DNA from: Candidatus Eremiobacteria bacterium
Lineage (GTDB): Bacteria > Vulcanimicrobiota > Vulcanimicrobiia > Vulcanimicrobiales > Vulcanimicrobiaceae
Direction: 5' to 3'
Length of the DNA: 64,000 nucleotides
Assembly: GCA_963758295.1 (NCBI GenBank)
Contig: CAVWUU010000003.1
Location: 1 to 64,000 of the forward strand
The position numbers and the translations under genes are program-made. Below are positions 22,438 to 46,087 of the stretch, one piece after another; within the stretch, counting starts at the first letter, position 1; the number at the start of each line of letters is the position of its first letter. The notes under the pieces are model-generated. The model saw only the letters and a list, made by a program, of their open reading frames with translations. It made no database searches and was not told where the DNA came from.

Positions 22438-23522
22438 AGATCTGGCAGATCCTCGCTGTCGTGGCAGCCGGTGCGGCGTTCGGCTTCGTGCAGCCGGGCA
22501 AATTGACGTACGCCTTCGGACACTCCACGTTGTACGTCTTTCTGCCGGCGCTGCTCTTTGAAGCCGCGTGGAATTTGCACTTTCGCGCCATGCGGCGGTT
22601 CTGGGCGCCGATTGCGACGCTCGCGATTCCGGGTGTTGCCCTAAGTGCAATGCTCGTGGCCGGGGCGCTTTTCGCAGTGCGAGTCCCGTTCGGCGCCGCG
22701 CTATTGACCGGCGCCATCCTCAGTGCGACGGATCCGATCGCCGTCGTTGCGGTTTTTCGGCGGCTCCGCGCGCCGCTGGCTTTGAGCACGATCGTGGAAT
22801 GCGAGTCGTTGTTCAACGATGCCGTTGCGGTCGTGCTTTATCGCGCCTTGGTGCAGACCGTCGATCCGGCTAATGCAAAGACCGCTCTTGGGCTCATCGT
22901 CGCGGCTTCGTTCTTGGGATCGGCGGCCGGAATTGCACTCGGCGTTGCAATCGCGTTTGTGGCGGCGGGAGCGTTACGCCGGCGAAGAGATGCGCGCATT
23001 CAAATCGTCGCAACGCTGATCTGTGCGTATGGAAGCTATTTCCTCGCCGAAACGCTGCATGCATCAGGAATCTTTGCGACGATCTCCTGCGGAATCGCTC
23101 TCCGATACTTTGAGAGGGCCTGGGTCACGCTGAGCATCGGCGAAGAGGTGGAAGGACTCTGGAACCATGTCGCGCTCGCGGCTAACGTGCTCGTGTTTTT
23201 CTTGACGGGCGCAGCGCTCAGCCTAGCCGAAGTCGTTCGCTATCCGGCGTTCGTCGTGGCTACGTTGGCCGGATTGGTCGTGTCGCGCCTGGGCATTTCC
23301 GCTCTGCTGATTCCGGCGCGCTTTCCACGTGAATGGCTCGACGTGGTTCGAATCGCGGGCGTACGCGGGGCGCTGTCCCTGGCGTTAGCGATCGCGTTAC
23401 CCGAGGGCATGCCATATCGCGGCGCGATTGTAGCGGCCGCGTTTGCGGCGGCGCTGGCGACGATCGCATCGAGCGCGTTGACTGCCCCGGCGCTCGTAGC
23501 ACGGTCCGTGCGATCGCGCTAG
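22434..23522 (+). CDS. Cation:proton antiporter (CPA1/NhaP-like)
   Basis: FLPALLFEAA, SATDPIAV, ESLFNDA, GVRGALSLALA. Confidence 0.92.
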   Translation: MKIWQILAVVAAGAAFGFVQPGKLTYAFGHSTLYVFLPALLFEAAWNLHFRAMRRFWAPIATLAIPGVALSAMLVAGALFAVRVPFGAALLTGAILSATDPIAVVAVFRRLRAPLALSTIVECESLFNDAVAVVLYRALVQTVDPANAKTALGLIVAASFLGSAAGIALGVAIAFVAAGALRRRRDARIQIVATLICAYGSYFLAETLHASGIFATISCGIALRYFERAWVTLSIGEEVEGLWNHVALAANVLVFFLTGAALSLAEVVRYPAFVVATLAGLVVSRLGISALLIPARFPREWLDVVRIAGVRGALSLALAIALPEGMPYRGAIVAAAFAAALATIASSALTAPALVARSVRSR

Positions 23523-25438
23523 ATCGTCAAACGCTCTTCTACGATAATCAAATTGGCGCCGAAATCCGGCGAGGCACCGGCCGGCTCCGACGGCAGTCCG
23601 GTGAAGCTGTTGTGGCGGAACTGCACCAAAGTCGCCGCCGTCTTTGACTCCCTTATTTGCGTCCCGGCGAAGTACGTGCTTTCACCGTAGTCGAGCGGCG
23701 TCGTGGCCCACGTGCCTTTCATGCCGTAGCGCGCATAGCCGCCCGCAACCACGGCATTTTGTGCGATCGAACGTGAGTACGTCAACGCGATTTGCGGAGC
23801 CACGTAATCCACCAAGTCTTCCGGGTGTTGCGCGAATGCGGGGCGGTGTTCGGCATCTACGACGTAATCGAAAGTGATGGTGCCGAAAGGCCGGTGCCAG
23901 GCAAGCCATGCTGCGTATTGCGCTTGCGAACCCAAGGTAGCGAATGCGTCGAGTTGGGGAAGGAAGAATCCGTCGACGAAGCCGGTCTGATGGACGTTGG
24001 CGAGCGTTGCCGCGTCGATCTGGCGGTAATTAGCGTACTGCGCGCGCCACTCGAGGGGACCGCCGTCGACGAAGTATTTCAAACGGAATCCTTGGCGATT
24101 AACTCCGATCGCGGTGTTGTCGTTTAACTGATAGTTCGACTTCAGCCATTGTCCGGGCCAGGACCACGCCGAACTCCAAACGTTCTCGGGAACACCGTAC
24201 GGGAGAATGGCTGTCGCGTAGCGCGGCTCGAACCGAAACCATTCCGCCGCAGCAGTTGCACGGCCGTGTTTAGTTTTGAGTGCCGCACGATAATAAGCGC
24301 CGGGTCGCTGGGTGCCCGGTTCAAAAACGCCTGCGGCGTCGTACCATTGACGCGCGGCCTGTATAGCAGCCTCCAGCGAACCCGAGACGTGAAACGATGC
24401 GGCAACTCCGGCGATCGTCGCACGCTGGCCTCCAAGGACGCTTACCGGAAGTTCACCCTGCGGGCCTCCGACGGTCGTCGCTCCGGCGCCGTACATGGTC
24501 GTAGTAGAAATTGGCAGGCCACCGGTTGACAAATGTAAGAATTCTGCCGCATAACGCGTGCCCTGGCCGTGGTCGATTACTGCCGAGCCGATCGTTATGT
24601 GCGCGCTCGTTCCAGGCAGTGCCGGCAAAGCGGCGCTGCTAAGTTCAAACGACGCGAGCCCGCGGTTCGCCGTGACGTCGACTCCAAGTAAAGGCAGCCC
24701 CGGCTCCGGCGATGGCCAAGAATCCAGCAAAGGAGGTTGTGCGTTCAACGTTTCTGCGGGCGCGACCCCGAGCGCGGGCGTTACGCTCGTGAAGGCCGGT
24801 TGAATGAAGACGAATCGCTCGCTTTGCGTAAGATCGAAATATCCGGCGCGAGCAGCCCAGGATCCATCGCGTGCCGAAAGCGCTCCGCTAAGCACGGAGA
24901 ACCGAAATGCCGTTGCGTAATCGCTGTTCGCCGAAACCGGAAAAATAATGGCGTACCGCAGCGCCTGATTGCCCAGGTGCGGATTGAATGTAGGGAGCAA
25001 GTTTTCGCCCCAATACATCAAGTTGGCGGTGCTTCCGCTAGAAAAGCCGGCGCCCAATTGCAGCGAGGCATCGAAGCTGCGCCCGTGATAAGCCGGCGTA
25101 ACGCGATACTGCAACAGCGCCGCCGTTCCAGGAATTTGCACTGCGCTGGTCCAGAGGTCGTACGGCGTGTTAGGCGAGAGTGGCGAACCGTTGCCGAATT
25201 CCGCGCCCTCGGGCGGTGTGATTCCCGCACCGTGCGTTCTCTGATCGATATAGAGATTCTGGCCGTCTAGCGACCATGTTATCGTACCCGGAACCGGCGA
25301 AGGAGAAGGAGACGGTGAAGAACCCGGCGCGTCCTGCGCGTAAGCAATACCGGTATTTGCGCGGAGCAATACTAACACAGCAGTAAACACAAAACCGGCG
25401 CTTCTCACGCGGCGGTTCATTCGAGCCGCGGCCCGCAT
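23519..25438 (-). CDS. Exported hypothetical protein, probable outer-membrane beta-barrel
   Basis: Signal peptide, PS-rich linker, aromatic-rich alternating beta-strand pattern to the C-terminus. Confidence 0.6.
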   Translation of the reverse strand: MRAAARMNRRVRSAGFVFTAVLVLLRANTGIAYAQDAPGSSPSPSPSPVPGTITWSLDGQNLYIDQRTHGAGITPPEGAEFGNGSPLSPNTPYDLWTSAVQIPGTAALLQYRVTPAYHGRSFDASLQLGAGFSSGSTANLMYWGENLLPTFNPHLGNQALRYAIIFPVSANSDYATAFRFSVLSGALSARDGSWAARAGYFDLTQSERFVFIQPAFTSVTPALGVAPAETLNAQPPLLDSWPSPEPGLPLLGVDVTANRGLASFELSSAALPALPGTSAHITIGSAVIDHGQGTRYAAEFLHLSTGGLPISTTTMYGAGATTVGGPQGELPVSVLGGQRATIAGVAASFHVSGSLEAAIQAARQWYDAAGVFEPGTQRPGAYYRAALKTKHGRATAAAEWFRFEPRYATAILPYGVPENVWSSAWSWPGQWLKSNYQLNDNTAIGVNRQGFRLKYFVDGGPLEWRAQYANYRQIDAATLANVHQTGFVDGFFLPQLDAFATLGSQAQYAAWLAWHRPFGTITFDYVVDAEHRPAFAQHPEDLVDYVAPQIALTYSRSIAQNAVVAGGYARYGMKGTWATTPLDYGESTYFAGTQIRESKTAATLVQFRHNSFTGLPSEPAGASPDFGANLIIVEERLTI

Positions 25439-25444
25439 TACTTT

Positions 25445-26281
25445 TTAAAGCGACATAAAAGACAGGCCGGCGCCTACATAGCGCTGCTGTTGACCGCTCG
25501 TTGTAGACGGTTGAACGCCCACTTCGATGTCGACCTGAAGGCTGGAGCCAAAATCGTGTGCGAGCCCATAATCGATAAGCGTTCGGTCGCCGACACCCGT
25601 GCCGCTGTTGCTAAAGTATGCATACTCGGCAAAGAATTGCGAATTCTTCGGAAGTGCGATGGATGCCACAAATGACGGCTCGAAGGCGAAAAAGCGCGAG
25701 CTGCGGCCGTTAGAGCTTGGCCCGAAAAGCGAGTTGAATCCGAGGGTTCCTCCGATTCCGAGCACGGAGTTGACGCTGTACGACCAGTTGAAATTTGCGG
25801 CGTATTGCGGAGCGCCCGCCGTAAATCGCGGTGAACCGCTGGGAACCGTGAATGCCGCGTTCGCGCTGCACGAAGCCTTTGCGCTATAACCGAGGACGTA
25901 CTTCAGGCCCGCACCGGCGTCGGAAGCGCCGCGCGCAATCGTACCGCCGGCAGAAGTTACGACGATCGAGGGAGGCGTGATTTCGTATTCGAGACGATCG
26001 TCGGCGCTTCCGATGCGAAGGAACGCTTGAGGAAATGAAGCCGTATGCCCCTGGGCCGAACCCGTCGTCACCGCGTTCGTGTAACCCGTTTCGAGCAGCG
26101 ATTTGTGCGCTTGCACGGTGCATACCGACGTTGCGACGGTCGGCCGCGTAACGATGGAGAGCATGGAAGTGCAGGGATAAGGTGGCGGCGATGGGGGCGG
26201 CGCCGGTGTTTGGCCTCTGCAAGCGCCCATTGTGGCGGCATAAGAAAGCGCGCACAGGGCAACGCCCTTACTGATACTCAT
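25445..26281 (-). CDS. Outer-membrane 'transporter' (MetA-pathway/phenol-degradation-like beta-barrel)
   Basis: Signal peptide, TRPT...LLETGY, SDAGAGLKY, C-terminal YVGAGLSF. Confidence 0.7.
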   Translation of the reverse strand: MSISKGVALCALSYAATMGACRGQTPAPPPSPPPYPCTSMLSIVTRPTVATSVCTVQAHKSLLETGYTNAVTTGSAQGHTASFPQAFLRIGSADDRLEYEITPPSIVVTSAGGTIARGASDAGAGLKYVLGYSAKASCSANAAFTVPSGSPRFTAGAPQYAANFNWSYSVNSVLGIGGTLGFNSLFGPSSNGRSSRFFAFEPSFVASIALPKNSQFFAEYAYFSNSGTGVGDRTLIDYGLAHDFGSSLQVDIEVGVQPSTTSGQQQRYVGAGLSFMSL

Positions 26282-26298: not shown

Positions 26299-26383
26299 CG
26301 TGGGCCGCGAGCGATAAGCATCCGAACGGATCATCCTTTCGGCGGCTGCCAAAAGCGCTACGCGGTCGTTATTCTACTCTCGT

Positions 26384-26467
26384 ATGCTCGAACTCGGACT
26401 CGTCGTGCTTTCAATTGCCTGTTTCGTGCTTCTGGACTGCTATGTTGCCGGGTGCGAAAAGGTTTAA
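26384..26467 (+). CDS. Small hydrophobic Kdp-associated peptide (27 aa, MLELGLVVLSIACFVLLDCYVAGCEKV)
   Basis: Manually translated; single TM ending YVxGCE; stop 4 nt before the kdpF ATG. Confidence 0.7.
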   Translation: MLELGLVVLSIACFVLLDCYVAGCEKV

Positions 26468-26471
26468 TCGC

Positions 26472-26561
26472 ATGCGTTTCGACGACATTTTGGGCCTCGC
26501 TTTAACCGCTGTCGCGCTCGCGTATCTGGGCTACGCGATGCTGCGCCCGGAAAAGTTTTAG
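26472..26561 (+). CDS. kdpF: K+-transporting ATPase subunit F
   Basis: MRFDDILGLALTAVALAYLGYAMLRPEKF; YLxYAxxxPEKF signature, directly before kdpA. Confidence 0.93.
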   Translation: MRFDDILGLALTAVALAYLGYAMLRPEKF

Positions 26562-26567
26562 ACCCAG

Positions 26568-28268
26568 ATGACCGTTACCGGCTGGCTTCAGGCCATAAGC
26601 TTCTTCCTGATCATCCTGGCGTTAACCAAACCGCTGGGTTCGTATATGGCCCGGGTATTTGCCGGCGAGCGTACTTGGCTCTCGCCGGCGATCGCCCCAC
26701 TAGAGCGGGCGATCTATTGGATTTGCGGCGTGCGCGAACACCAGGAGATGACGTGGTATGCCTATGCGTTATCCATGCTGGCATTCTCGGTGGTTGGGCT
26801 GGTGTGGGTCTACGCCGTGTTGCGCACGCAGAAGTGGCTTCCGTTGAACCCGCAGCATTTCGCGAACATGGCGCCCGATCTAGCGTGGAACACGGCCGTG
26901 AGCTTCCTGACGAACACGAACTGGCAGTTCTATGCCGGCGAAAGCACCATGAGCTATCTTTCACAGATGGCCGGCTTGGCATGGCACAATTTCGTGTCGG
27001 CCGCTGCCGGCGTCGCCATTGCGGTAGCCGTTGTGCGGGGCGTGGCACGAACGAACCTCAAGACGCTGGGCAATTTCTGGGTCGATTTGACGCGCGCGCT
27101 GCTCTACGTATTCCTGCCCTTAGCGTTTATCGGAACACTTTTTTTGCTGTGGCAGGGCGTCCCGCAGAACTTCGATGCGTACGAGCAAATTACGACGCCG
27201 GAAGGCATATCGCAAACGATCACCGGCGGTCCGATGGCTTCACAAGAAGCCATCAAAGAGGCGGGCACCAACGGCGGCGGTTTCGTGAACGCAAACTCAG
27301 CCGCTCCCAACGAGAACCCCACGCCGCTTAGCAACTTTTTCGAAATGCTGTTGATCTTGTTGGTCTCGGCCGGACTGGTTTACATGTACGGCAAGATGGT
27401 CAAGGACACGCGTCAAGGCTGGGCGATCTTTACCGCGATGTCGCTGCTGTTCTTCGCCGGATTCGCCGTTGCATACTGGGCGGAATCGGCCGGCAATCCG
27501 ATCGTGCACCAGCTGGGCGTGGCCGGCGCAAATATGGAAGGGAAAGAATGCCGGTTTGGCGCCGGCGCGTCCGCACTCTTTGCGACCATCACGACCGATA
27601 CGTCATGCGGCGCGGTAAACGCGATGCACGATTCTTTCACCGCGCTTGGCGGTCTCGTGGCTCTTGTCAATATGCAACTCGGCGAAATCGTTTTCGGCGG
27701 TACGGGAAGCGGACTCTATGGCATGATCGTCTTCGTTGTGCTTACCGTATTCATCGCCGGGCTCATGGTCGGGCGAACTCCTGAGTTTCTCGGCAAGAAA
27801 ATCGAGCGCCGGGAGGTGCAGTTCGCGATTCTCGCAGTCCTCGTTACGCCCGTTTTGTCCCTCGTGCCCGCGGCCGTTGCGGCCACCATTCCTGCGGGTT
27901 TGGCGACGCTGAATAATGCCGGACCGCACGGCTTTTCCGAGATTCTATACGCCTTTACGTCGACGAATGCCAACAACGGCTCGGCCTTCGCCGGCCTTTC
28001 GCCAAACCTATTCTACAATCTGACGACGGGAGTAAATATGATGTTCGGACGCTTCGCCGTGGCGATTCCGGCGCTGGCGTTAGCAGGATCGTTAGCCGGA
28101 AAGAAAGCCGTCGCGCAAGGCGTTGGAACGTTCTCTACCCATTCCGGCATCTTCATCGCACTGCTTGTGGGCGTCATCGTCATAGTCGGCGCGCTGACGT
28201 TTCTTCCGGCTGACGCACTGGGCCCGATCGTGGAACACTTGCTCGTGCTTCAAGGGAAGACGTATTAA
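26568..28268 (+). CDS. kdpA: K+-transporting ATPase subunit A
   Basis: [33 protein letters not shown]. Confidence 0.98.
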
Positions 28269-30316
28269 TGCTGTCCCAACGGCGTCTCGAGCGCCGGCCC
28301 AAAGGCCGCCCGCTCCTCGATCGCGCAATCGTTTCGCGAGCGGTTCGCGATTCATTTGCAAAACTGGATCCGCGGTGGATGGCACGCAATCCCGTCATGT
28401 TCATCGTTGAGGCCGGTGCGGTCGTTACATCGCTATTTTTTCTTCGCGACTTGCTTCGCCACACCGGAAGCGCCGGATTTGATTTAGCAATTGCCGTGTG
28501 GCTGTGGTTTACCGTGCTCTTTGCAAACTTTGCCGAAGCCGTCGCTGAAGGACGCGGCAAGGCGCAAGCCGATTTTCTGCGGCGGACGAAGAGCGATACG
28601 CTCGCGAAGCGCTGGACGACGAGCGGCCTGGAGACAGTCCGCTCGACGGATCTGCGCAAAGGCGACGTCGTCCTTGCCGGCGCCGGCGATCTGATTCCGG
28701 GAGACGGCGAAGTGCTCGAAGGCGCTGCAATGGTCGACGAATCGGCGATCACGGGAGAATCCGCGCCGGTCGTGCGCGAGGCGGGTGGCGACCGAAGCGC
28801 CGTTACGGGCGGCACGCGCGTTTTGAGCGATGTGATCCGGGTGCAGATTACGGCAAACGCCGGCGAAACGTTTCTCGATCGGATGATCGGCCTGGTTGAA
28901 GGCGCGCAGCGTAAGAAGACGCCCAACGAAATTGCGTTATCCATTTTGCTGGCGGGTCTTACGATCGTCTTTCTTATCGCCGTGGCGACGCTGTTGCCGT
29001 TTTCGATTTATGCCGGTGCGCGGCAAACGCTGACGGTGCTGATCGCTCTGCTCGTGTGTTTGATTCCCACGACGATCGGCGGACTGCTTTCCGCGATCGG
29101 GATTGCCGGCATGGATCGCGTCATGCAACGCAATGTACTTGCCATGAGCGGGCGCGCCGTCGAAGCGGCGGGCGACGTCGACACGCTGCTCCTCGACAAG
29201 ACGGGAACAATCACGCTCGGTAACCGCCGAGCTTCGGAAATTATCGTTGCGCCAGGCGTCGAACCGGCGGAAGCCGCCAAGATCGCGTACCTTTCATCGC
29301 TAGCCGACCAAACGCCGGAAGGCCGGTCGATCGTCACGCTCGCGCAGCAATTCGGCGTGACCAACGGCGAGCCGGAGCATTCACGGTTCGTGCCGTTTAG
29401 CGCCTACAGCCGAATGAGCGGATTGGACTTTGACGGCATCAGCATTCGCAAGGGCGCTCCCGATTCAGTTACCGCCTGGGTTCGCGAGCGCGGGGGCGAA
29501 CCGCCGGCTGCCCTTGCGGCCGACGTAGAACGCATTGCCCGCGCCGGCGGCACGCCGCTGTTGCTCGCGCAAGATCGTACCGTTCTCGCCGTGATCCATT
29601 TGAAAGATATCCTCAAGCCGAACATGCGCGAGCGGTTCGATCGTTTGCGCGCGATGGGAATTCGCACGGTGATGATTACCGGCGACAATCCGCTTACCGC
29701 GGCCGCAATTGCAAGAGAAGCGGGCGTCGACGACTTTCTCGCGGAGGCGACGCCGGAAGCGAAAATGGATTTGATCAAGCGCGAACAGGATTCCGGGCGT
29801 CTCGTTGCTATGGCGGGCGACGGAACGAACGACGCGCCCGCGCTCGCGCAAGCCGATGTGGGCGTCGCTATGAACTCCGGCACGCAGGCGGCGAAAGAGG
29901 CGGCGAATATGGTCGATCTCGATTCCGACCCAACGAAACTCATCGAGGTTGTCGAAATCGGCAAGCAGTTGCTCATGACCCGCGGGGCGTTGACGACGTT
30001 TTCTATCGCGAACGACGTCGCGAAGTACTTCGCGATTTTGCCCGCCATGTTTACCGCCGCTTATCCCGCGATGAGGGTGTTGAACGTCATGCGGCTGGCG
30101 ACGCCGCAAAGCGCGATTCTTTCAGCGGTGATTTTCAACGCGCTCATCATTGTCGCGCTTATCCCGCTCGCATTGCGCGGAGTGAAATACGAACCGCGCG
30201 GCGCCAATGCAGTCCTTCGGGAAAACGTCTTGATCTACGGCCTTGGCGGCATCGTCGTGCCGTTCGCCGGAATAAAACTCATCGACTTGCTGCTCGCAGG
30301 ATTTCATTTGACGTGA
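28268..30316 (+). CDS. kdpB: K+-transporting ATPase subunit B
   Basis: [30 protein letters not shown]. Confidence 0.98.
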
Positions 30317-30324
30317 GGTTCGCT

Positions 30325-31191
30325 ATGCTAAGACCGTTCGGCACGGCTTTTCGCCTTACGATCGTTACGGTCGTGGTCTTCGGCCTTGTCTATCCCTTGC
30401 TCATGACCGCAATCGCGCAAGTGCTTTTCCCGTATCAGGCGGCCGGGTCGCTGGTGAAATGGCACGGCCGCGTTGCGGGTTCCGCAATAATCGGGCAGCT
30501 GTGGACGAAGTCGCAGTATTTCCATGGGCGGTCGTCCGCCGCCGGCAAGAACGGTTACGATCCCACGGCAACCGGCGGAACGAATCTCGGCCCGAGTTCC
30601 AAGAAGTTCGTTGATTCGGTGAAATCGGCGGTCGCCGAGCTGCACAAAGAGAATCCGGACGCGCAAGTTCCGATTCCGGTCGATCTCGTAACTTCCAGCG
30701 CCAGCGGCGTCGATCCCGATATCAGCCCGCAGGCGGCGTATTACCAGGCACCTCGCATCGCGCGAGTGCGGCACGTGACGGTCCAGCAGATAAATTCGCT
30801 CATCGCACGCCACGTGCAGCCGCGAACGTTCGGATTTCTCGGCGAGCCGAGGGTCAACGTGTTGGAATTGAACCTCTCCGCGGACGAAGCTTATTCGGCG
30901 TCGACGAGCCGCGCGTCCGTAACCGGTTTGGGCCGAGCCAAGACGATGAGCTCCCGGGCTCCTTCGTCCAGCAGCCGTCGTGCGAAGGCATTGCGCGCGG
31001 GCCAACGCGGCGTTCGATGGGTGCCGCCGACTGCGACCATCGTCTCCCGTTGCATGCGGGCGACTTCAATGAGCCGCTTTGCGGCATCGTCGACACGATC
31101 GTTGATAAAGTCGCCATTCAGGGTTCGCGCGACGCGTTCGAATTCCGCAAGCTGTTCCGTATCAACCTTATCGCGGGTCTCCGCAATGTGA
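30325..31191 (+). CDS. kdpC: K+-transporting ATPase subunit C; ORF runs ~100 codons past the usual end, antisense into the kdpD-like gene
   Basis: YPLLMT, YFHGR, VTSSASGVDPDIS, GEPRVNVLELNL; GAGG SD before ATG 30325. Confidence 0.93.
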   Translation: MLRPFGTAFRLTIVTVVVFGLVYPLLMTAIAQVLFPYQAAGSLVKWHGRVAGSAIIGQLWTKSQYFHGRSSAAGKNGYDPTATGGTNLGPSSKKFVDSVKSAVAELHKENPDAQVPIPVDLVTSSASGVDPDISPQAAYYQAPRIARVRHVTVQQINSLIARHVQPRTFGFLGEPRVNVLELNLSADEAYSASTSRASVTGLGRAKTMSSRAPSSSSRRAKALRAGQRGVRWVPPTATIVSRCMRATSMSRFAASSTRSLIKSPFRVRATRSNSASCSVSTLSRVSAM

Positions 31192-33047
31192 GCGATCGCA
31201 AAATCCACTTCCAGCCGCAGTGCGAGGCGCGCCGCTTTGCGAACGAGCAACATGTCTTCACGGCGCGCCACGACGCTCAGCAAGAGCCGGTCGAAGGGGG
31301 CCGCGATGCGTTCGCGCGTTTCCGAGCGAATTGCCTCGCGAATTGCAAGCTCTCGCAGCGACGCGAGGTTGTCGGTGCGGAAGAAATTCGAGAGCGCCGT
31401 CTCGATGCGTTCGGGCGGATAGATCTTTCCTTGACGCAGCCGTTCGCGAAGCGTTTCGGGCGAAACGTCGATAAGAATCACCTCGTCGGCAAGCGGCAAA
31501 ATTCCGTCGGGCAGCGTTTCGCGGACGACGGTGCCCGTGAGGCGGTACACCACGTCGCTGAGCGCTTCCAGATGCTGCACGTTGAGCGTGGTGATGACGT
31601 CGATGCCGGATCGAAGGAATGCCAGGACGTCCATAAAGCGTTTGGGAGCAAGCGACCCCGGTGCGTTAGTGTGCGCCAGTTCGTCTACGAGCAAAACGCG
31701 GGGTTTACGCGCGAGCACCGCGTCGCGGTCCATCTCCGCATGGACTATGCCGTCGTGCGCGACCGCCTTGCGCGCGACAACTTCAAGGTCCCCGATCATG
31801 GCGGCGGTTTCCGCACGGTTGTGTGTTTCCACGAAGCCGATGAGCGTGTCGACACCTTCGGATTTCAGTTGATGTCCGCGATCGAGCATGGCATAGGTCT
31901 TACCGGCTCCGGCCGCGGCGCCCAGGTACACCGTGAGTTTCCCGTAGCCGATTTTCATCCGGTCTCCGAGCGTCCCCGAGAGCGGCGTGGTAAACGCGGA
32001 TTGTTCTAAATACGATTGCGTTGCGTCGACGACCACGATGTCGCGCTCGACTTTGGTATTTACGAGTTTCGCGGCAAACTTGCCGTTCGGAACGGCAACC
32101 ATGGAAGCACGGAGCGCATTGAAGTCCACGCGCTGCGGGTCCTCGGCGGGAAGCAAATCGGCGTTATGTGTCGACGCCAAAATCTTCAGGCTCGCCAAAT
32201 CGCACGCCGAAGCCGGCAGCACTTCGAGCGCGAGATCGAACGCCGCGGCGACCGGCGCACTGCGTGTAAGAAAGACCGGCGCATCGACGTCGGGTGTCAC
32301 GATCGCCACTGCCGTCGACGTGCTGGCGGCCGAAACGATCGGGATCGTCAAATCGTCGATCGTTCGCAGCAGCAGTTCGCGCAGCATGGTGAGCGTCGAC
32401 TCTTTGAAGATGCCGTTGCCTGCGCGCTCGATGTCTGCGTCGGGTACGACCTTGCCTTGGTGGAGGCGTTCGAGCAGCAGCTCGGGAGAAGCATCGAGGG
32501 CGATGACGTCGTCGGCGCCCTTGAGGAACGACATCGGCACGACTTCGCGTACGGGAAACCCCGTCAGCGTCTCGGCAGTCGCAGAGACCGTTTCTAAATG
32601 CTGAATGTTGAAGGCGCCGAGCACCGAAATCCCCGCCTGGCGGAGCGCCATCGCATCCTGCCATCGCTTTCCGTTCAGCGAATCTGCGAGATTGCCGTGC
32701 GCCAATTCGTCGAGAATGACGACATCGGGTTTCGCGGCAATCGCCCCCTGCAAATCAAACTCTTCGAACGTCTGGCCGCCGGTGTTTACTTGCCGGGATG
32801 GAATGCGCGGAAACTCTTGCGCCAAACGCTCGAGATCCGGACGCCCTTTCGTCTCGATCCAGCCGATTGCGACGCGCCGTCCCGAGATCTGCAAGCGGCG
32901 TCCGTCGGTAAGAAGCCTCCGCGTCTTTCCGGCGCCGGGCGCAGCGGCGATATACACCGTCAGACGGGCCCGTTCGCCGAACTCGCGCAGCAGTTGGGTA
33001 GTCGAACTGCGACGGCGTTCTTCGAGTTCGTCCGGGGAGAGATCCAT
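30891..33047 (-). CDS. kdpD: Soluble protein with two tandem KdpD N-terminal sensor domains (each followed by a USP-like region); no TM or kinase domains
   Basis: Module 1: YIAAAPGAGKT, LDELAHGN, KRWQD, NIQHLE. Module 2: YLGAAAGAGKTYAML, VDELAHTNAPGS, TTLNVQHLE, GKIYPPERIETALSNFF. Confidence 0.9.
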   Translation of the reverse strand: MDLSPDELEERRRSSTTQLLREFGERARLTVYIAAAPGAGKTRRLLTDGRRLQISGRRVAIGWIETKGRPDLERLAQEFPRIPSRQVNTGGQTFEEFDLQGAIAAKPDVVILDELAHGNLADSLNGKRWQDAMALRQAGISVLGAFNIQHLETVSATAETLTGFPVREVVPMSFLKGADDVIALDASPELLLERLHQGKVVPDADIERAGNGIFKESTLTMLRELLLRTIDDLTIPIVSAASTSTAVAIVTPDVDAPVFLTRSAPVAAAFDLALEVLPASACDLASLKILASTHNADLLPAEDPQRVDFNALRASMVAVPNGKFAAKLVNTKVERDIVVVDATQSYLEQSAFTTPLSGTLGDRMKIGYGKLTVYLGAAAGAGKTYAMLDRGHQLKSEGVDTLIGFVETHNRAETAAMIGDLEVVARKAVAHDGIVHAEMDRDAVLARKPRVLLVDELAHTNAPGSLAPKRFMDVLAFLRSGIDVITTLNVQHLEALSDVVYRLTGTVVRETLPDGILPLADEVILIDVSPETLRERLRQGKIYPPERIETALSNFFRTDNLASLRELAIREAIRSETRERIAAPFDRLLLSVVARREDMLLVRKAARLALRLEVDFAIAHIAETRDKVDTEQLAEFERVARTLNGDFINDRVDDAAKRLIEVARMQRETMVAVGGTHRTPRWPARNAFARRLLDEGARELIVLARPKPVTDARLVDAE

Positions 33048-33124
33048 GGGCCTGCACGATTCGCCGCGGCCTGTCGCACATACCCGCCGCAGGCGGGCCC
33101 TTCAAGGGCGCGAAGCGAGTTCTA

Positions 33125-34660
33125 GTGATCGCGCCGCTGTGCTACGCGCTCCTGATCCTTGCTTGGATCGTGGACCTTCTTACGCCGCAATCGTTCGTCG
33201 CGGCAATCTTCCTGAACGGACCGATCGCGCTTTCGGCGCTCGCTTTGCGAACGCGCTTGACGCTGCAGCTAACCGTGCTTGCGGAGCTGGCAAACGTCGT
33301 GGCCGGCTATGTCAACGGCATGCAGGCCGGCGGCCATTGGGACGCGATTGCGCTCGGCGATCGGGGGATTTCCGCCGCGACGTTCCTGTTGGTAGGCGCC
33401 TTGACGATGCGGGCGCAGGAAAGCGCGCGGCGCGCAGGAGAGAGCGAAGAACGGCGGCGTGGAATCGAACGTGAACGATCGTTGCGCCACGCAATGGAAA
33501 ACGTGCGGGCGACGCTCAATTTGGAGCTGGTGATGCGTGCCGCCGTGCGTGAAGCACAACGGCTTACCGGCGCGGAACATGTCGCTCTTATCGTGAAAAA
33601 GTCCGCACTCGACGTTCCCGATACGTACGAGATCCGTTCGGACAGCGATGAAATCGAATTGCGGCGGGCGCCCTTGACGCCGGAAGTAGCTTCGCTGGTA
33701 GAGCGTGCCCGAGGGGAAGAAACGTTCGTTCGGGTCAGTGCCAAGGACCCGCTCGGACGGCTCCTAGGCGAGAATGCGTTCGTTGCGGCGCTTAATCTGG
33801 ACGAAGCGGGGATTGCTTTGCTGATCGGGTGGGGCGAACGCGTTCCAACCGAAGACGATAGAAGCAGCGTTCTCGCTTTCGTAGCAAATCTCGGCATTGC
33901 GTTGCGTCAAGCACGCCTATTCATCCGCTTGGCGGAGCAGAACGAACAGATCGCGCAGCAGAAGGACGAACTCCAAGGCCGCAACGACGTGATTCGCGAC
34001 ATCGTTTATGCACTAGCGCACGACCTGCGCACGCCGCTTGCCGCGGCCGATTTGACGATGACGCAAGCGCTAGAAGGCGCGTACGGGGAGCTGCCGCCGC
34101 GTTATCGCGAAATTCTTCGTACGGCGATCTCTTCAAACGTCGACGTCCGCCGTTTGGTGGAAACGCTATTGCTCGTGGCAAGGTACGAAGCCGGCGAAGA
34201 TTCGCAATTGAGAATGGCCGAGTCGGTTCTGCCTCTCGTTATGCGCGTTACGGAGGAGTTGCGGCCAATGGCCGACGTGAAGCGCATTTCCCTGACCGTG
34301 ACGCCGCAGAGCCGCCCTACTTTCGTCCTCGTGGATCCGAACGAGCTTCGCCGGGCAATCACAAATTTGGTTGCAAACGCCATTGAAGCGACGCCGGCGA
34401 ACGGCCATGTGAGCGTCGGCGCTTTCGAACGCGAGGGAAGCGTAGTTGTAGAGGTGATCGACGACGGCTACGGCGTGCCGCCGGCGAAACGGCCGGCGCT
34501 GTTTCAGCGCTTCAGCGGCGTACGCACCGGCGGCGGAACGGGGCTAGGGCTCTACATCGTCCGCAGAATCGCGGAAAAATACGGCGGTGCGGCAGGCTAC
34601 ATGCCGCGGGAGCCCGGAAGCCGATTTTTCTTGGAGCTGCCGAAGGTAACGTCGGTATGA
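33125..34660 (+). CDS. Membrane sensor histidine kinase (~4 TM - GAF - HisKA - HATPase)
   Basis: Hydrophobic N-terminus, GAF-like middle, ALAHDLRTPL, NLVANAI, DDGYG, GTGLGL. Confidence 0.92.
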   Translation: MIAPLCYALLILAWIVDLLTPQSFVAAIFLNGPIALSALALRTRLTLQLTVLAELANVVAGYVNGMQAGGHWDAIALGDRGISAATFLLVGALTMRAQESARRAGESEERRRGIERERSLRHAMENVRATLNLELVMRAAVREAQRLTGAEHVALIVKKSALDVPDTYEIRSDSDEIELRRAPLTPEVASLVERARGEETFVRVSAKDPLGRLLGENAFVAALNLDEAGIALLIGWGERVPTEDDRSSVLAFVANLGIALRQARLFIRLAEQNEQIAQQKDELQGRNDVIRDIVYALAHDLRTPLAAADLTMTQALEGAYGELPPRYREILRTAISSNVDVRRLVETLLLVARYEAGEDSQLRMAESVLPLVMRVTEELRPMADVKRISLTVTPQSRPTFVLVDPNELRRAITNLVANAIEATPANGHVSVGAFEREGSVVVEVIDDGYGVPPAKRPALFQRFSGVRTGGGTGLGLYIVRRIAEKYGGAAGYMPREPGSRFFLELPKVTSV

Positions 34661-35289
34661 GCCCGTTGCGCCCGCGCGTCGTCATTATCGAAGATCACGC
34701 GCTTACGCGTGAAGGGATGAAGACGGCGCTTTCCGCCGGGTTCGACATCGTCGGCGAAGCGCCGGACGGCATTTCCGGTCTGAGCCTAGTCGAAACTTCG
34801 CGGCCCGACGTCGCAATCGTCGATTTGGGGCTTCCGGGGCTGGACGGCGTCGAACTCACGCGGCGCATTCGCGAACGCGTTTCCGGAACGCATGTGGTCA
34901 TTGTCACGATGGTCGACGTGGAAGAAGAAGTGATTGCCGCATTGGCGGCCGGCGCCGATGCATATTCTTTGAAGTCGGCGCCCGCTCAAGCGTTAGCGGA
35001 TGCGGTTCGCATTGCCGGCGAAGGCGGCGCATACTTCGATCCCCGCATTGCGCACGTGGTACTCTCGCGGTTCGCTCCGCGTCGCGAAATTTCGCCGGGG
35101 CCGCTGACGCCTCGCGAACGGGACGTGCTGGCGCTCATTTCCGAAGGACACGGCAACACGGAAATCGCGAGCGAATTACACATTGGGCTCGGGACGGTGA
35201 AAGGTCACATCCGCGATATTCTGGAGAAGCTTTCCGCGGCCGATCGCACGCAGGCGGCGGTGACGGCACTCCGGCGCGGTTTGATTTAA
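34657..35289 (+). CDS. NarL/LuxR family response regulator
   Basis: IEDH, IVDLGLPGLDG, LTPRERDVL...TVKGHI; ATGA overlap with the kinase. Confidence 0.93.
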   Translation: MSPLRPRVVIIEDHALTREGMKTALSAGFDIVGEAPDGISGLSLVETSRPDVAIVDLGLPGLDGVELTRRIRERVSGTHVVIVTMVDVEEEVIAALAAGADAYSLKSAPAQALADAVRIAGEGGAYFDPRIAHVVLSRFAPRREISPGPLTPRERDVLALISEGHGNTEIASELHIGLGTVKGHIRDILEKLSAADRTQAAVTALRRGLI

Positions 35290-35984
35290 CGGACCGGCTG
35301 CGCGCAGCCGAAGATCGCTTGCAGTTTCTCGGCGGCGCCGTTCTTCACGACGGCGACGATCTTGTCGTTCAGGCGCAACTGGGTGTCGCCGGTCGGAATA
35401 ACCATTTCCGCCTCGCTCTCGCGTTCAATCGCAACGATCACGCTATTGCGCGGCAACGAAAGTTCTGCGAGGTGTTTGTTCAGAACGGGCGATTCTTGGC
35501 GGACGGTCATGCGAACGAGGCTCAAGTTTCCGGTACCGAACAAATGCATCGTCTCCAGCGCCGCGCGATAACTGGCGGCGTTCACGTGTTCGTTCAGCAC
35601 GTCGAGGATGATTTCAGTCGAAGAAATGACCGTAATCGGATCCTCGGGATCCAAGGAGAGAAAAATCTCTTTGTTGCGCGGGTTGTTCACGCGGGCGATG
35701 CAGCGCGCTTGCGATTTCTTCTTCGTAAGCAGGACGACGACCAGGTTGTCCTCATCGTCGCCCGTGTCGGCCACCACTACGTCGGCGCGGTTCACCCCGG
35801 CCGCTTCGAGGACTGTTGGGTCGCAGCCGTCGCCGACGACGGTGATTTGGCGGTCGATCAGCGTTTCGAGGGCCTTGGCTTTCTTCTCGACCTTCTCGAC
35901 TACCACGACTTCATGGCCTTGGTTGATGAGCGCGCGGGTTAGGTACGAGCCCACTTTGCCGCCGCCGACGATTAGAATGAACAT
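35286..35984 (-). CDS. trkA: TrkA family K+ uptake regulatory protein (RCK_N + RCK_C)
   Basis: IVGGGKVG, DTGDDEDN, IARVNNP, IPTGDTQL. Confidence 0.9.
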   Translation of the reverse strand: MFILIVGGGKVGSYLTRALINQGHEVVVVEKVEKKAKALETLIDRQITVVGDGCDPTVLEAAGVNRADVVVADTGDDEDNLVVVLLTKKKSQARCIARVNNPRNKEIFLSLDPEDPITVISSTEIILDVLNEHVNAASYRAALETMHLFGTGNLSLVRMTVRQESPVLNKHLAELSLPRNSVIVAIERESEAEMVIPTGDTQLRLNDKIVAVVKNGAAEKLQAIFGCAQPVR

Positions 35985-36659
35985 TTATGCCGTTTTCGCC
36001 TGAGGCGTTACGCCTTGGAACATCTGCGCGAATTCGCTGATTGCTTCCGGCGCGACGATTGCGTTGACTTCGTCTCCTACCTCTAAGACGAGATCGTTGT
36101 ATGCCACCATGACGCCGCTCGAGCCGCGACGGATGGCGGCGATGCGAATGCGCCCGGGGGCTTCGATGTCGCCGACTCGTTTGCCGGCGTCCGCTTCGGT
36201 TACCGTCGCTGCGAGCGACGTGACCTTTCCAAAGTCGAAGGAGTGCACGGGATCCCACGGCGCTTCCATGAGCGTGTCGCGGATCAACTTTGCACCGACG
36301 GTGGTCGGTACGACGGTTTGAATGCCTAGCTCGCGATACATCTGCCCGCGGGGCGGATCGTAAATGCGCGCTACGATGCGTTTGATCTTGAACATTCGCT
36401 GCGCGATGAGCGCCGCCATAATGTTGCGGTTGTCGCCGTCGGTGCAGGCAACGAAGCCGTCTGCCGACGCTGCGCCGGCGCGCTTGAGAACATCGTAGTC
36501 TATACCGGTGCCTACTACGACGTGTCCTTTGAACTTTTGACCGAGCCGTTTGAATGCCGCGGGGTTTTCATCTACGACGATGATCTCGTTGCCGTCGGCA
36601 TCGAGAAGTTTTGCGAGTAAAGAGCCGACGCGTCCGCAGCCGACAATGAGATATCTCAT
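35985..36659 (-). CDS. trkA: TrkA family K+ uptake regulatory protein (CeoB-like)
   Basis: IVGCGRVG, TDGDNRNI, VARIYDP, LGIQTV. Confidence 0.9.
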   Translation of the reverse strand: MRYLIVGCGRVGSLLAKLLDADGNEIIVVDENPAAFKRLGQKFKGHVVVGTGIDYDVLKRAGAASADGFVACTDGDNRNIMAALIAQRMFKIKRIVARIYDPPRGQMYRELGIQTVVPTTVGAKLIRDTLMEAPWDPVHSFDFGKVTSLAATVTEADAGKRVGDIEAPGRIRIAAIRRGSSGVMVAYNDLVLEVGDEVNAIVAPEAISEFAQMFQGVTPQAKTA

Positions 36660-36744: not shown

Positions 36745-36818
<74 letters not shown>

Positions 36819-39298: not shown

Positions 39299-40897
39299 TT
39301 AGGTCAGGCCGTCATAGCCTTTTTCCAACCAGCGGAGCGCCGCTGCACGACGCCGGCGTAAACTTTCGACGGTTGCTTGGGCGATAGGGCCGCCGAATCG
39401 TTGGTTCAGCGTTGTGTGGATCTTGCGATGCTCGATTCTGAAGCGCTGGGAGACCTGCGCGACCAGCGCCGAAAGCGACGCACGCAATAGCTCTTTTTCT
39501 TCAGCGATGCTGAGGACCGGTTCGGGCTCCGGCTCGGTTTCTTCGTGTGGTTCTAACGTTGCGACTCGCGCTGCGACGTGCAGGGCGTCTTCCAGGTAGG
39601 CGCTGGGATTGAAGAGCGGTCCGTAGTCCAAGACGCGTTCGCCGTCGACGTTGGCGGCAATCGCCTCAAAGTGATTGTCAGCTTCGCTCGCGTTCGGTCT
39701 GCAAGCGTTGCGCCAGCTCCAGCTCTTCCAGTTCGCGCTTGACGTGAAGCACGCCGCGGACGTCGGCGGTTACGCGAGCTGCAAGTTCGCGTAAGCGCTG
39801 ATCGTCGGGGAGATAGACGAACGCCTGTTGCATGCCGCCTTTTTGCGCACGAACGAAGCGGCCGCAAAACTGGCGAAAATACATTTCCGTCACGACGTTG
39901 CTGGCATAGACGCCGACGCGCAGACGCGGGATATCGACGCCTTCGGAAACCATATGCACCGCAACGATCCAGGGATCGTCGCTGCGCGCGAACGATGCAA
40001 TTCTTCGCGAGGCGTCATCTTCGTCGGAAAGGACGATCGCCGGCTTTGCGCCCGTACGCGCTTCCACAAAGCCGGCGAGAAAACGCGCGTGCTCTTGATT
40101 CATCGCAATTGCCAGTGCGCCCGCGTCGGGATGCTCGCCACGGCGCAATTGCATCAGCGCTAGCGTGCGCCTTTGTCGATGACGTCGCCGATCCAGGCTT
40201 CGTGCACGAGCACGGTGCGCAGCCGTTCGCTCATGCGGCTCTTCGAGCGCAGCGCTTGGTCGAACGAAGAGGCGTGCAATTCGCCATCCTTGCTGACCCA
40301 TTCGGCGTAACCGCCCTGCAACGGAAAAACGAGGGGCGGCAAACGCCGTCTCTGAGTGCGTCGGCGTAATCGTACGAGAAATCCGGCATGCATTCGCCAC
40401 GCTGATAGTGAACGAATGGAATGGCGCTTCCGTCCGAGCGGAACGGGCGTTCCGGAAAGGCTGATACGGTGAACGGCGCCGCCGAAGGCGTCCTTCAACG
40501 CGGCTCCCCAGCTCGCAGCGTCGCCCGCGTGGTGAATCTCGTCGAGCACGACGAGGGTTGGGACATTTGCAAGACGTTTGTATAGATGCGGCGCCGCAGC
40601 GATCTGTTGATAGGTGATCGCGGCGCCGTGTACGTCGCTCGCCAGCGCGCCCGCGGCATTCTCGAATCGGTGATCGATGCGAATGCCCGCCTGCGCCATA
40701 GCGGCCGCCGTTTGCGCTTTAAGGTGTTCGCGCGGAACGACCACGAAGATGCGGCGCGCGCGGCGTTCGGCAAGCACCGCGTGTGCCAAGCGCGCGGCAA
40801 AGCGGGTCTTGCCGGCACCCGGCGTCGCCACGATGAGCGCGTCGCGCGGCTGCTCGGACCACCAAGCGTCGAATGCTTCGCGCTGCCAACGCCGCAA
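39299..40897 (-). CDS. DEAD/DEAH-box (SF2) helicase, split by several indels
   Basis: ATPGAGKT, LDEIHHAGD, LSGTP, MVSEGVDIPRLRVGVY, FRQFCGR spread over three frames. Confidence 0.85.
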
Positions 40898-40995
40898 CGC
40901 CAGCCTCCATCGCTGAACTGACCTTCCATCATGGGAAGCCGCTCTGATTCAAAGCCTTCGGGGCCGTCGCCTCGAAGGAATGTGATACCGACATC

Positions 40996-42995
40996 ATGAC
41001 GACGACCGGACAAGCACGCACCCTCGAGCAAACCCTCGCGCAGATTCCCGACTCGCCGGGCGTTTACCAAATGATTGCACGAGACGGGACGATCCTTGTA
41101 TATCGGGAAAGCGGTTTCGCTGCGCAATCGCGTGCGTTCGTACTTCCAGGACTCCGCCGCGCACCACATCCGCACGCAAGCAATGGTGGAGCGCGTCGCC
41201 GACGTTCGCACGATCGTCGTCAACAACGAAGTCGAAGCGCTGATTCTCGAAGCGAATCTGATCAAGCGGCATCAGCCGCCCTTCAACGTCCGCCTTCGCG
41301 ACGACAAGCGGTATCCGTATCTTGAAGGTGACGAACGAGCCGTTTCCCCGCGTCGTATTTACGCGCATGGTTAAGGACGACGGCGCGCGCTATTTCGGCC
41401 CGTACACGAACGCTCACGGCCTGCGGGAACTGATCGACCTCGTGCGTTTGGTCTTTCCGTTGCGCACCTGCCGCGAGCCCATCGACGGGCGCCGAAAACG
41501 GCCGTGCCTGCAGTATCACATCAAGCGTTGCCTCGCGCCTTGCGTCGGCTATCAAAGCGAAGCCGGAGTACGACGCGCTGATCAACGAAGTCGTGCTATT
41601 TCTGGAAGGCAAACAAGACTCGCTGCTTCGGCGCCTTCAGGCCGAAATGGTGGAGTCGGCCGAAGGATTCAATTTCGAAGCGGCCGCGCGCATTCGCGAT
41701 CGCATCATTCAAGTGCGCCGCGTACCGGAGTCGCAAAAGGTCGTCTGGACGTCGCGGCTCGATATGGACCTGATCGCAATCGCGCGTTCGCAAGGCCAGG
41801 CGTGCATGCAAGTCTTCATGGTGCGCGGCGGCAAGCTCATCGGCCAGGAGCATTTCATTCTCGACGGCGTGCACGATCAATCCGACGCGGAATTAATGGA
41901 TGAGTTTCTGAAGCAGTTCTATACGGCCGAACCGCGAGCGCTCCGGAGAACGGCGTGCTTTCTCCGGCGCCGGGACGCATTGCGCGCGACAATCAAGTTC
42001 CCGTCCCGGTAAAACAACGCGCCCGCGCATCGCGCCGGCAGCGCGGCCGCCGTGCCAAAGGAAGTGCTTGTGCAAGAGCTTCCGCGCGAACGCGGCGTGA
42101 TCGAAGCGTGGCTGACGACGCTGAAAGGCCAGCGCGTACGCATGCTGAACCGCAACGCGGTTCGCGCGCCGACTACATGCGGCTGGTGCAGAAGAACGCC
42201 GAACAGAACCTGAAGGCCTTCTTAGTGCATCAAGAAGTGCAGGAGACCGCGCAAGCCCTTTCGTTGACGGAGCTTGCCGATGCGTTGGAGCTTCCCGAGC
42301 CGCCGCATCGAATCGAGTGTTACGACATCTCGAACATTCAAGGCACGAACCCGGTATCTTCGATGGTCGTATTCGTCGAAGGGCGCGCGAAGAAGAGCGA
42401 GTACCGCAAGTTCAAAATTCAGTACGATAAGGGCCCAAACGACTTTGCGATGATGCAAGAGACCTTGCGACGGCGCTTACGCTATTTGCGCGCGCGAAAC
42501 GGATTCCGAAACAAACGGCCCCGAACGCGAGCTTGCGAAAAAAGAAAAGTTCAACAAGAAGCCGGACCTGTTGCTGATCGACGGCGGCAAAGGGCAGTTG
42601 AACGCCGTGGTCGAGGTTCTCGAAGAGCTGGACATGACGGGTATTCCGGTTGCGGGTTTGGCGAAAGAACACGAGTGGCTGTATCTGCCCGGACAGGGCG
42701 AATCCGATCGTGCTGCCGCCCAACTCCGCGGGCTTGCATTTGGTCATGCGCATTCGCGACGAAGCGCACCGTTTTGCCGATCACGTATCACCGGCAGCGT
42801 CGCGCCAAAGCGATGACGCAGTCCGCCCTGGACGCGCTCGCAGGCGTCGGGCCGGTTCGCAAGAAACGGTTGCTTGCCGCGTTCGGGTCGGTCGCGGCGA
42901 TCAAGCGTGCGACGATCGACGAGATCGCCGCCATCAAAGGCATGACTCCCGCACTGGCAGCGCAAGTGAAGAGCGCGCTCGAAGGAGGTTCCTGA
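40996..42995 (+). CDS. uvrC: Excinuclease ABC subunit C, interrupted by multiple single-base indels
   Basis: [70 protein letters not shown], HhH tail in alternating frames. Confidence 0.93.
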
Positions 42996-45732: not shown

Positions 45733-46087
45733 GGGGCTGAATTAGGCTCGACGAGGAGATCCGCGGTCGGCGTCAGCAAGCGGAGTTGCGAGCTCTCCTA
45801 AAACGATCGCAACGGCAATATCTGCCAACAACGAATACGCACTGGCTGCCTAATTTAGGTTAGTCACCGGACGCAGAGGGTCGGCCCGAACCGCTCTGCC
45901 TTCCGGCCAATAATTCGGGCTGGTACGGTCGCCTGATCTGACGATCGTACGAGATTAAGGGTCTGCTGCGCACGGTAAGTCCCGCTTTGAGACGTCCGTG
46001 CGAGTAAGCTAAAATCGAAGCTGAGCTTGGAGAACGCGTCGGCTAGGCTTTTCGGACTCGGGGGGCAGTACCCCGACAGCTCCACCA
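45733..46087 (+). ncRNA. ssrA: Transfer-messenger RNA (one-piece), tag (A)ANNEYALAA
   Basis: 5' GGGGCTGAATTAGGCTCGAC, 3' CAGCTCCACCA with G3-U70; tag ORF 45824-45853. Confidence 0.96.

Follow-up and report, generated by a model that had tools for sequence, protein, structure and literature searches.

Doubled KdpD N-terminal modules, a separate membrane kinase and a NarL-type regulator at the kdp locus of Vulcanimicrobiia

How is a Kdp potassium pump controlled when the parts known from the sensor KdpD lie on separate proteins, and when one of these proteins carries the KdpD N-terminal module twice? This question is raised by a stretch of 64,000 nucleotides (the window) on contig CAVWUU010000003.1 of assembly GCA_963758295.1, from a Candidatus Eremiobacteria soil bacterium of the family Vulcanimicrobiaceae. 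In the window, the kdpFABC operon (26472-31191) converges on a gene for a soluble tandem KdpD N-domain protein. This tandem gene lies head-to-head with the gene for a membrane histidine kinase, and the stop of the kinase gene is overlapped by the open reading frame (ORF) of a NarL/LuxR-type response regulator (Table 1). A previous sequence-only reading had interpreted the arrangement as a split and duplicated KdpD, in which the tandem protein senses potassium and regulates the kinase in trans.

On balance, we favor a different division of labor, in which the kinase acts through the regulator and an operator on transcription, whereas the tandem protein inhibits the pump itself, mainly through the activity of its second module. 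In this view, phosphate would pass from the membrane kinase to the NarL-type regulator, and the regulator would bind a predicted operator at 26319-26348 and turn on kdpFABC when potassium is scarce. When potassium is ample, the soluble tandem protein would phosphorylate Ser165 of KdpB and stop the pump. Less firmly, KdpB phosphorylation may fall mainly to module 2, whereas module 1 may bind nucleotide with a changed adenine pocket and surface and serve as a built-in regulatory partner. One pump would then likely be controlled at two levels by separate proteins. We infer the transcriptional role from a regulator knockout and electrophoretic mobility shift assays in Deinococcus radiodurans, and the serine-kinase role from biochemistry on the E. 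coli and D. geothermalis proteins. Our own analysis covers the anatomy of the locus, the conservation of residues, the co-occurrence of genes, a conserved DNA motif and the homology to the Deinococcus kinase/regulator pair.

The genome that holds the window (G000) is 82% complete. The comparison set consisted of 300 other genomes of the phylum Vulcanimicrobiota (Eremiobacterota), 231 of them in the same class, Vulcanimicrobiia; the sampled genomes are kin and mostly incomplete. Gene presence was scored by strong matches to KdpD, to the N-terminal half of the kinase (query residues 1-280) and to KdpA. Two weak KdpD rows (G297 and G151, E about 5e-4) were left out of the counts, and three genomes flagged as unpublished were taken in (G128 with all three genes, G264 with KdpD only and G233 with the kinase only). 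Nearly all KdpD-positive genomes gave two KdpD matches, counted per genome irrespective of whether they share an ORF. Synteny was read in 67 class loci spread over genera, 64 of which had room on the kinase side.

The tandem KdpD N-domain protein

The tandem gene encodes 718 residues in one ORF with two stretches that match PF02702 above the cut-off and with no stop codon between them. These are the only two PF02702 matches in G000. The description of this protein as two complete KdpD N-terminal modules holds, since each module contains GAGKT (residues 38-42 and 380-384), DELAH (113-117 and 455-459) and an NxQHLE motif (NIQHLE at 147-152 in module 1, NVQHLE at 489-494 in module 2). The N-domains share 40% identity over 218 residues. 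As the sequence-only reading had stated, no transmembrane segment was found in the tandem protein, in which a single hydropathy window exceeds 1.5. A Foldseek comparison with 2r8r gave an E value of 2.7e-21, a TM score of 0.95 of the target and a root-mean-square deviation (rmsd) of 1.5. The best NCBIfam match is NF038185 (KdpD-like non-kinase potassium sensor), which aligns in two stretches with an E value of 1.7e-150; the score of 501 bits lies under the cut-off of 550, and the model describes one module of 373 residues.

The segment that follows each N-domain had been called USP-like. An AlphaFold2 (AF2) model (pLDDT 88, pTM 0.62) agrees with this proposal in that it has alternating beta/alpha segments at 245-340 and 587-703, whereas Pfam Usp gives no match in the window protein and weak matches in 15 of 56 orthologues (best E 5e-4). 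We call these segments putative USP domains on the basis of position and predicted secondary structure, with weak Pfam support.

According to PMC11018627, E. coli KdpD1-230 phosphorylates Ser162 of KdpB by means of G36/K37/T38, W39/R190 and D109/E110, and short KdpD-Usp proteins phosphorylate KdpB as well, under the control of cyclic di-AMP (c-di-AMP). The equivalent residues G40/K41/T42, D113/E114 and R194 of module 1 and G382/K383/T384, D455/E456 and R536 of module 2 are invariant in all 56 orthologues. The KdpB protein of the window retains the predicted substrate, the TGES serine S165. By analogy, the tandem protein is likely a double atypical serine kinase. Because the KdpD N-domain is a KdpB serine kinase, the tandem protein is likely a pump inhibitor and not mainly a sensor that acts in trans; such an activity would allow it to do its job without contact to the histidine kinase.

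Module 2 is closer to canonical KdpD and keeps an aromatic residue at the W39 position (Y385 in the window; Tyr in 45 and Phe in 7 of 56 orthologues). The W39 equivalent of module 1 is R43 (Arg in 40, His in 12 and Tyr in 4 of 56). Most module 1 sequences consequently have no adenine-stacking aromatic residue, several canonical surface motifs are altered, and K67, W129 and P171 are invariant in module 1 alone. The sequence-only reading had already described module 1 as the more divergent one. In a quick domain tree, modules 1 and 2 form a clade each, and the stem branch of module 1 is long (0.7); this tree is compatible with either a duplication within the lineage or a fusion as the origin of the modules. 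Those close relatives of module 1 whose source is named all belong to this phylum, and ordinary KdpD comes only after a gap.

With two KdpD domains, each followed by a weakly assigned USP domain, and with no transmembrane or kinase part, the tandem protein falls into the class "KdpD domain, Usp domain x2", which is recorded for 86 of 5495 species (Silberberg 2024; PMC11018627, supplement files 4 and 5). Members of this x2 class share the architecture and length range of the tandem protein and stem mostly from Bacillota, but also from Gloeobacter; Alicyclobacillus acidocaldarius has another KdpD chain and KdpE in addition to the x2 protein. Many members from Bacillota contain a mutated Walker B motif in module 1, whereas both Walker motifs are intact here and the aromatic residue alone is lost. 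The USP domains of the tandem protein are more eroded than those of the published class. Among the supplement rows listed there is no row or term for Vulcanimicrobiota, and the available text of PMC11018627 contained no assay of an x2-class member. In agreement with a wide distribution of the doubled form, a profile search identified two N-domains in 27 of the 143 listed representatives examined; proteins with doubled N-domains include those of Gloeobacter, Sporolactobacillus, Armatimonadota and Dormibacteraeota.

Related architectures were seen outside Vulcanimicrobiia. Another class has a separate (KdpD-Usp)x2 protein (L100:8404-10629, L101:7088-9451 and L102:2891-5131), which is encoded directly upstream of kup and has a degenerate second Walker B motif (DDLAA in L100 and L101); the loci read contain no kdp genes. 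In four loci from other classes (L104, L105, L110 and L111), a KdpD of 646-665 residues ends after GAF, and for three of them (L104, L110 and L111) Pfam detects DUF4118 and GAF and no kinase part.

The kinase, the regulator and a predicted operator

The kinase gene begins exactly 77 bp from the tandem gene, as first described, and Pfam finds HisKA and HATPase in its product. The GAF family PF01590 matches 41 of 51 kinase orthologues, yet not the window kinase itself, in which the GAF fold is recognized structurally (3mf0, Z 16.7, rmsd 3.2, 160 aligned residues). The predicted model starts with four helices. These results support the original description of the kinase as a protein of about four membrane helices, GAF, HisKA and HATPase. 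The regulator was also classified correctly: it combines Response_reg with a GerE/LuxR output domain instead of the Trans_reg_C winged helix of KdpE, and its acceptor residue, by sequence reading, is D56.

More doubtful is the idea that this kinase is the missing C-terminal half of KdpD. The order GAF, DHp and CA of the canonical C-terminal half is present. For the membrane part, DUF4118 matches none of the 51 orthologues at E values up to 1, and no DUF4118 protein was found in G000, whereas canonical and truncated KdpD proteins of the same phylum do score. The kinase profile meets E. coli KdpD from residue 599 onward only, and the kinase matches E. coli KdpD (28%, 73 bits) no better than other G000 kinases (up to 84 bits). 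Fold searches with the whole kinase were dominated by the catalytic domain and bear on that part of the protein. A weak lead from the ESM Atlas (score 0.88, DUF4118 on 46% of that cluster, clusters unnamed) suggests that the membrane part may be a remote relative of DUF4118. Hence, the domain order is alike, but the kinase is not demonstrably a split-off half of KdpD. D17, T20, P21, P33 and R80 in the membrane part are invariant in 51 of 51 orthologues and are candidate sensing residues.

The best matches of the kinase among plasmid sequences are Deinococcus kdp sensor kinases. The alignment with DR_B0082 extends over 495 columns with 34% identity (E 5e-58) and includes the membrane part. The regulator is 50% identical to DR_B0081, which is also GerE-type, and queries with DR_B0082 and DR_B0081 return the window kinase and regulator as their best matches in G000. 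Dani et al. 2017 (PMC5716572) describe a KdpD N-domain protein, a sensor kinase and a response regulator in Deinococcus and cyanobacteria, and report that KdpB of D. radiodurans is not induced without DR_B0081 and that this regulator binds the kdp promoter. The combination of a split KdpD with a NarL-type regulator was therefore already published, and doubled KdpD-Usp proteins were already catalogued (PMC11018627). PMC5716572 also calls the sensor kinase the C-terminal half of KdpD; no DUF4118 match was found in DR_B0082, and for the membrane part our tests lend this view no support. The available parts of PMC3610689 and PMC2714519 yielded no passage on split KdpD, and we found no account of kdp regulation in Vulcanimicrobiia in the open-licence literature.

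The D. radiodurans system (DR_B0088, DR_B0082 and DR_B0081) thus resembles the window in having a soluble KdpD N-domain protein, a separate membrane kinase and a NarL/GerE regulator beside kdp. The Deinococcus N-domain protein is single and encoded inside the kdp operon, as are the published short KdpD proteins (PMC11018627), and kinase and regulator are divergent from kdpB. Here, the N-domain is doubled, and its gene converges on kdpC and points away from the kinase gene. With E. coli KdpD/KdpE, the locus shares the fold and catalytic residues of the N-domain and the target serine in KdpB; in contrast to E. coli, where KdpD is one polypeptide with DUF4118 and the regulator is OmpR-type, the parts are separate chains and the regulator is NarL-type.

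The predicted operator consists of two CC-N4-GG units 13 bp apart, followed by GGCGGNTG, and lies about 22 bp 5' of the -10 hexamer. De novo motif discovery in 101 distinct regions upstream of kdpA returned motifs with an information content of 16.7 and 19.9 bits, compared to 8.7 and 8.8 bits for shuffled regions. A matrix seeded with the window site detects a site in 63 of the 101 regions, a number that is partly circular. Among the other 38 regions, which were not used in training, 26 contain a site on the same strand, 25 of these 1272-1481 bp upstream, so that 89 of 101 kdp operons are preceded by a predicted operator. Across the three families of the class, an exact pattern occurs in 158 of 206, 1 of 3 and 14 of 22 genomes, and a reversed control is far rarer. 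The window site reaches 43 bits, compared to 20 bits for the next non-overlapping site in G000, and the 77-bp divergent gap contains no copy. The three other motif matches examined in G000 do not exceed 20 bits and fall within or across long ORFs, and a wider regulon was dismissed for this genome.

The -10 hexamer sits 8 bp before the start of the small gene that precedes kdpF, and the kdp transcript may therefore be leaderless. This ORF for a 27-residue peptide is conserved in most of the 101 upstream regions and has no Pfam match. The predicted membrane peptide is probably a second small Kdp subunit, which we refer to as KdpG-like. The operator would overlap the -35 region, which fits an activator site, and it is likely the site of the NarL-type regulator. 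The best independent hint for this assignment comes from G273, a genome without kdp, where an orthologous kinase/regulator pair has a GAF-less kinase and an unchanged recognition helix, and where a 20-bit variant of the motif and kup come after this pair. No site above 5 bits was found at the loci of G089 and G160, and that of G188 has a site of 12 bits. Pattern matches in G214, G245, G267, G061, G093 and G178 score below 10 bits and were taken as chance. The binding site proposed for Deinococcus (PMC5716572) is T-rich, whereas the present motif is GC-rich; by eye, the gap between kinase and kdpB of D. radiodurans (L220:16790-16830) contains two GC-rich CC-N4-GG units that loosely resemble it.

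In four of four checked loci with a distant operator, the intervening gene encodes a BBP2 porin, and the motif still precedes the operon as a whole. As such a porin gene lies between operator and kdpF in many relatives, the porin is likely co-induced with the pump. Examples precede kdpF at L042:3509-4543, L061:1900-3078, L070:956-2113 and L079:3399-4502.

Conservation, gene losses and alternative readings

All three genes were found in 185 of the 231 class genomes; kinase and KdpA, with counts of 186-187 genomes, coincide in 185. The remainder contain KdpD only (9), KdpD with KdpA (1), KdpD with a kinase fragment (1), the kinase only (5) or none of the three (30). The query with the N-terminal half of the kinase gave no match in the 69 genomes of other classes. 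The synteny sample contains a kinase match in 62 of 64 loci (one a fragment); in 58 of the 64, the tandem and kinase genes are arranged head-to-head, no more than 170 bp apart. This layout is broken in L070, L082 and G279. Where kdpFABC lies on the other side (L067, L069 and L081), the tandem, kinase and regulator genes still stay together. None of the findings that would have contradicted the sequence-only reading was made: two KdpD domains are present, no canonical KdpD was found in G000, and in relatives the kinase/NarL pair keeps its place next to the tandem gene and is found together with kdpA.

Several observations are not easily accommodated by the two-level control that we favor. Nine of 231 genomes keep the tandem gene with neither kdpA nor kinase found, and the catalytic residues are intact in eight of the nine tandem-only proteins examined (from eight loci and G067). 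The c-di-AMP motif (A/G/C)xSxSxxN, described for the USP domain of Firmicutes KdpD (PMC8214093), occurs in 0 of 56 first and 0 of 56 second USP domains, a result that leaves other binding modes; the D. radiodurans N-domain protein likewise lacks this motif, and G000 encodes a diadenylate cyclase (DAC). Twelve of the 101 upstream regions have no operator, although at most 1504 bp were available in five of them, and the operator is assigned to the regulator by co-occurrence. Finally, the tandem gene converges on kdpC, has no operator and is head-to-head with the kinase gene, a layout suggestive of a connection with the kinase.

This last point also speaks for a reading closer to the original proposal, which we consider unlikely though compatible with the two-level control: module 2 phosphorylates KdpB, and module 1 docks on the GAF domain of the kinase and sets its kinase/phosphatase balance, so that a full-length KdpD is rebuilt from two chains. 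The conserved head-to-head layout and the cohesion of the three genes when kdpFABC moves are in line with such docking, and the three broken layouts are not. Likewise, all four kinase-only genomes examined (of five), which have neither tandem gene nor pump, encode a kinase that has lost GAF, with two different junctions and at three places in a tree. GAF loss fits a link between GAF and the tandem protein, and equally one between GAF and the pump, because pump and kinase were always lost together and their co-loss cannot separate the two couplings. Module 1 shows the largest rate increase once kinase and pump are gone: relative to TrkA, its rate is 3.05 in 7 genomes without both and 1.31 in 71 others (p 0.0005), compared to 1.61 and 0.91 for module 2 (p 0.012), in a test whose tips are kin and not independent and whose terminal branches include time before the loss. 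The ratio between the module rates is not significantly higher in the seven genomes (p 0.19). The membrane part of the kinase has no DUF4118 match, and second GAF-length kinase paralogues in G139, G217 and G287 have no tandem gene within about 1.5 kb. Only tentatively, then, do we suggest that the jobs of the modules are split, that docking on GAF couples pump inhibition to transcription throughout the class, and that kinases without a partner delete GAF and are re-used, for example with kup.

The tandem-only genomes also allow the idea that module 1 serves a second client, such as the TrkA pair, a Na+/H+ antiporter or Kup, which we regard as improbable. In L091, L095 and L115-L120, the tandem gene remains in its usual place after kdp and kinase/regulator were lost on opposite sides, flanked by the trkA pair on one side and by nhaP, an omp-like gene or radSAM on the other. 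These separate deletions on either side, the unrelated tandem KdpD directly before kup in L100-L102 and the invariant residues particular to module 1 would suit a second client. However, trkA adjoins the tandem gene in part of the loci only, and tandem-only genomes display decay (K383T in G122, deletions in G236 and H117R in G214). The faster evolution relative to TrkA weakens the case for an independent role. In G131 and G067, the operator is still there and the kdpG-like gene is truncated, remnants that point to a recent loss. We read the tandem-only genes as lingering genes. That module 1 is a catalytically dead scaffold which replaces the partner of a homodimer is very improbable. Its W39 equivalent, changed surface motifs and long stem branch, together with the degenerate module of other x2 proteins, point in this direction, but the Walker A K/T, the Walker B D/E and the equivalent of R190 are invariant in all orthologues, unlike in the degenerate modules from Bacillota.

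Of the GAF-less orthologues in L122-L125, that of L124 has kup as its neighbor, and those of L123 and L125 are divergent from a gene for an APC permease; G000 encodes a close relative of this permease near position 714000 of C1 and a kup near position 1129000 of C4. An origin of the GAF-less kinases from an old paralogue family was rejected after five genomes with two matches were checked, as the second copies found (three genomes) are full length. Second full-length kinase/regulator pairs are present in L226, L227 and L228, with a different-looking repeat upstream of L227.

The surrounding genes and the place of the locus among Kdp systems

Table 1. Predicted features of the kdp locus in the window
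Feature	Position	Strand	Basis
Predicted kdp operator	26319..26348	+	De novo motif and matrix scan
Predicted -10 TATTCT	26370..26375	+	TAnnnT-like hexamer, similar spacing after the motif in aligned sites
Gene for 27-residue hydrophobic peptide, KdpG-like	26384..26467	+	Conserved small ORF, precedes kdpF
kdpF	26472..26561	+	PF09604, E 1.7e-9
kdpA	26568..28268	+	PF03814
kdpB	28268..30316	+	TGES serine S165 = E. coli S162
kdpC	30313..31191	+	PF02669 over residues 11-191
Tandem (KdpD N-domain + putative degenerate USP) x2, soluble, 718 residues	30891..33047	-	PF02702 x2, AF2 model, 2r8r fold match
Module 1 N-domain	32358..32972	-	PF02702, 216 bits
Module 2 N-domain	31332..31943	-	PF02702, 280 bits
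Divergent gap, 77 bp	33048..33124		Between tandem gene and kinase
Membrane histidine kinase, 4-helix N-terminus, GAF, DHp (H299), CA	33125..34660	+	DR_B0082 family
NarL/LuxR-type response regulator	34657..35289	+	Response_reg + GerE; DR_B0081 family

A trkA pair (35286-36659) follows the regulator gene, in many relatives too, and no gene for a TrkH-type membrane protein was seen beside it. The homology of kdpC stops near residue 193, and the last 300 bp or so of the frame overlap the 3' end of the tandem gene in antisense; the kdpC stop of relatives is missing in the window, through either a mutation or an assembly error. At about 40160-42995, uvrC and a neighboring helicase-like gene are broken over several frames, which suggests sequence errors. 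Two genes for secreted or outer-membrane-like proteins without a Pfam family (23519-25438 and 25445-26281, minus strand) are divergent from kdp. Homologues of the 278-residue protein are encoded near kdp repeatedly; in several genomes, the operator motif also occurs in a second, inverted copy that faces the side of its gene. Rfam detects only a tRNA (36745-36818) and a tmRNA (45733-46087) in the window, and likewise only these RNA types in seven related loci; a ydaO riboswitch, which had no match in either, was dropped as a candidate.

The locus combines two published layouts and is a lineage-wide variant, not a new system; nothing known on Kdp regulation is overturned. What it adds is the fixation of this combination throughout the class, a first module that is intact but altered, a predicted operator, and GAF-less derivatives of the kinase. 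The operator provides a sharp candidate site for a NarL-type kdp regulator. Moreover, the class offers a natural test series, with complete systems, with genomes from which pump and kinase have disappeared and with GAF-less kinases next to kup, which bears on the activity of the x2 class and on the signal perceived by kdp kinases of the Deinococcus type.

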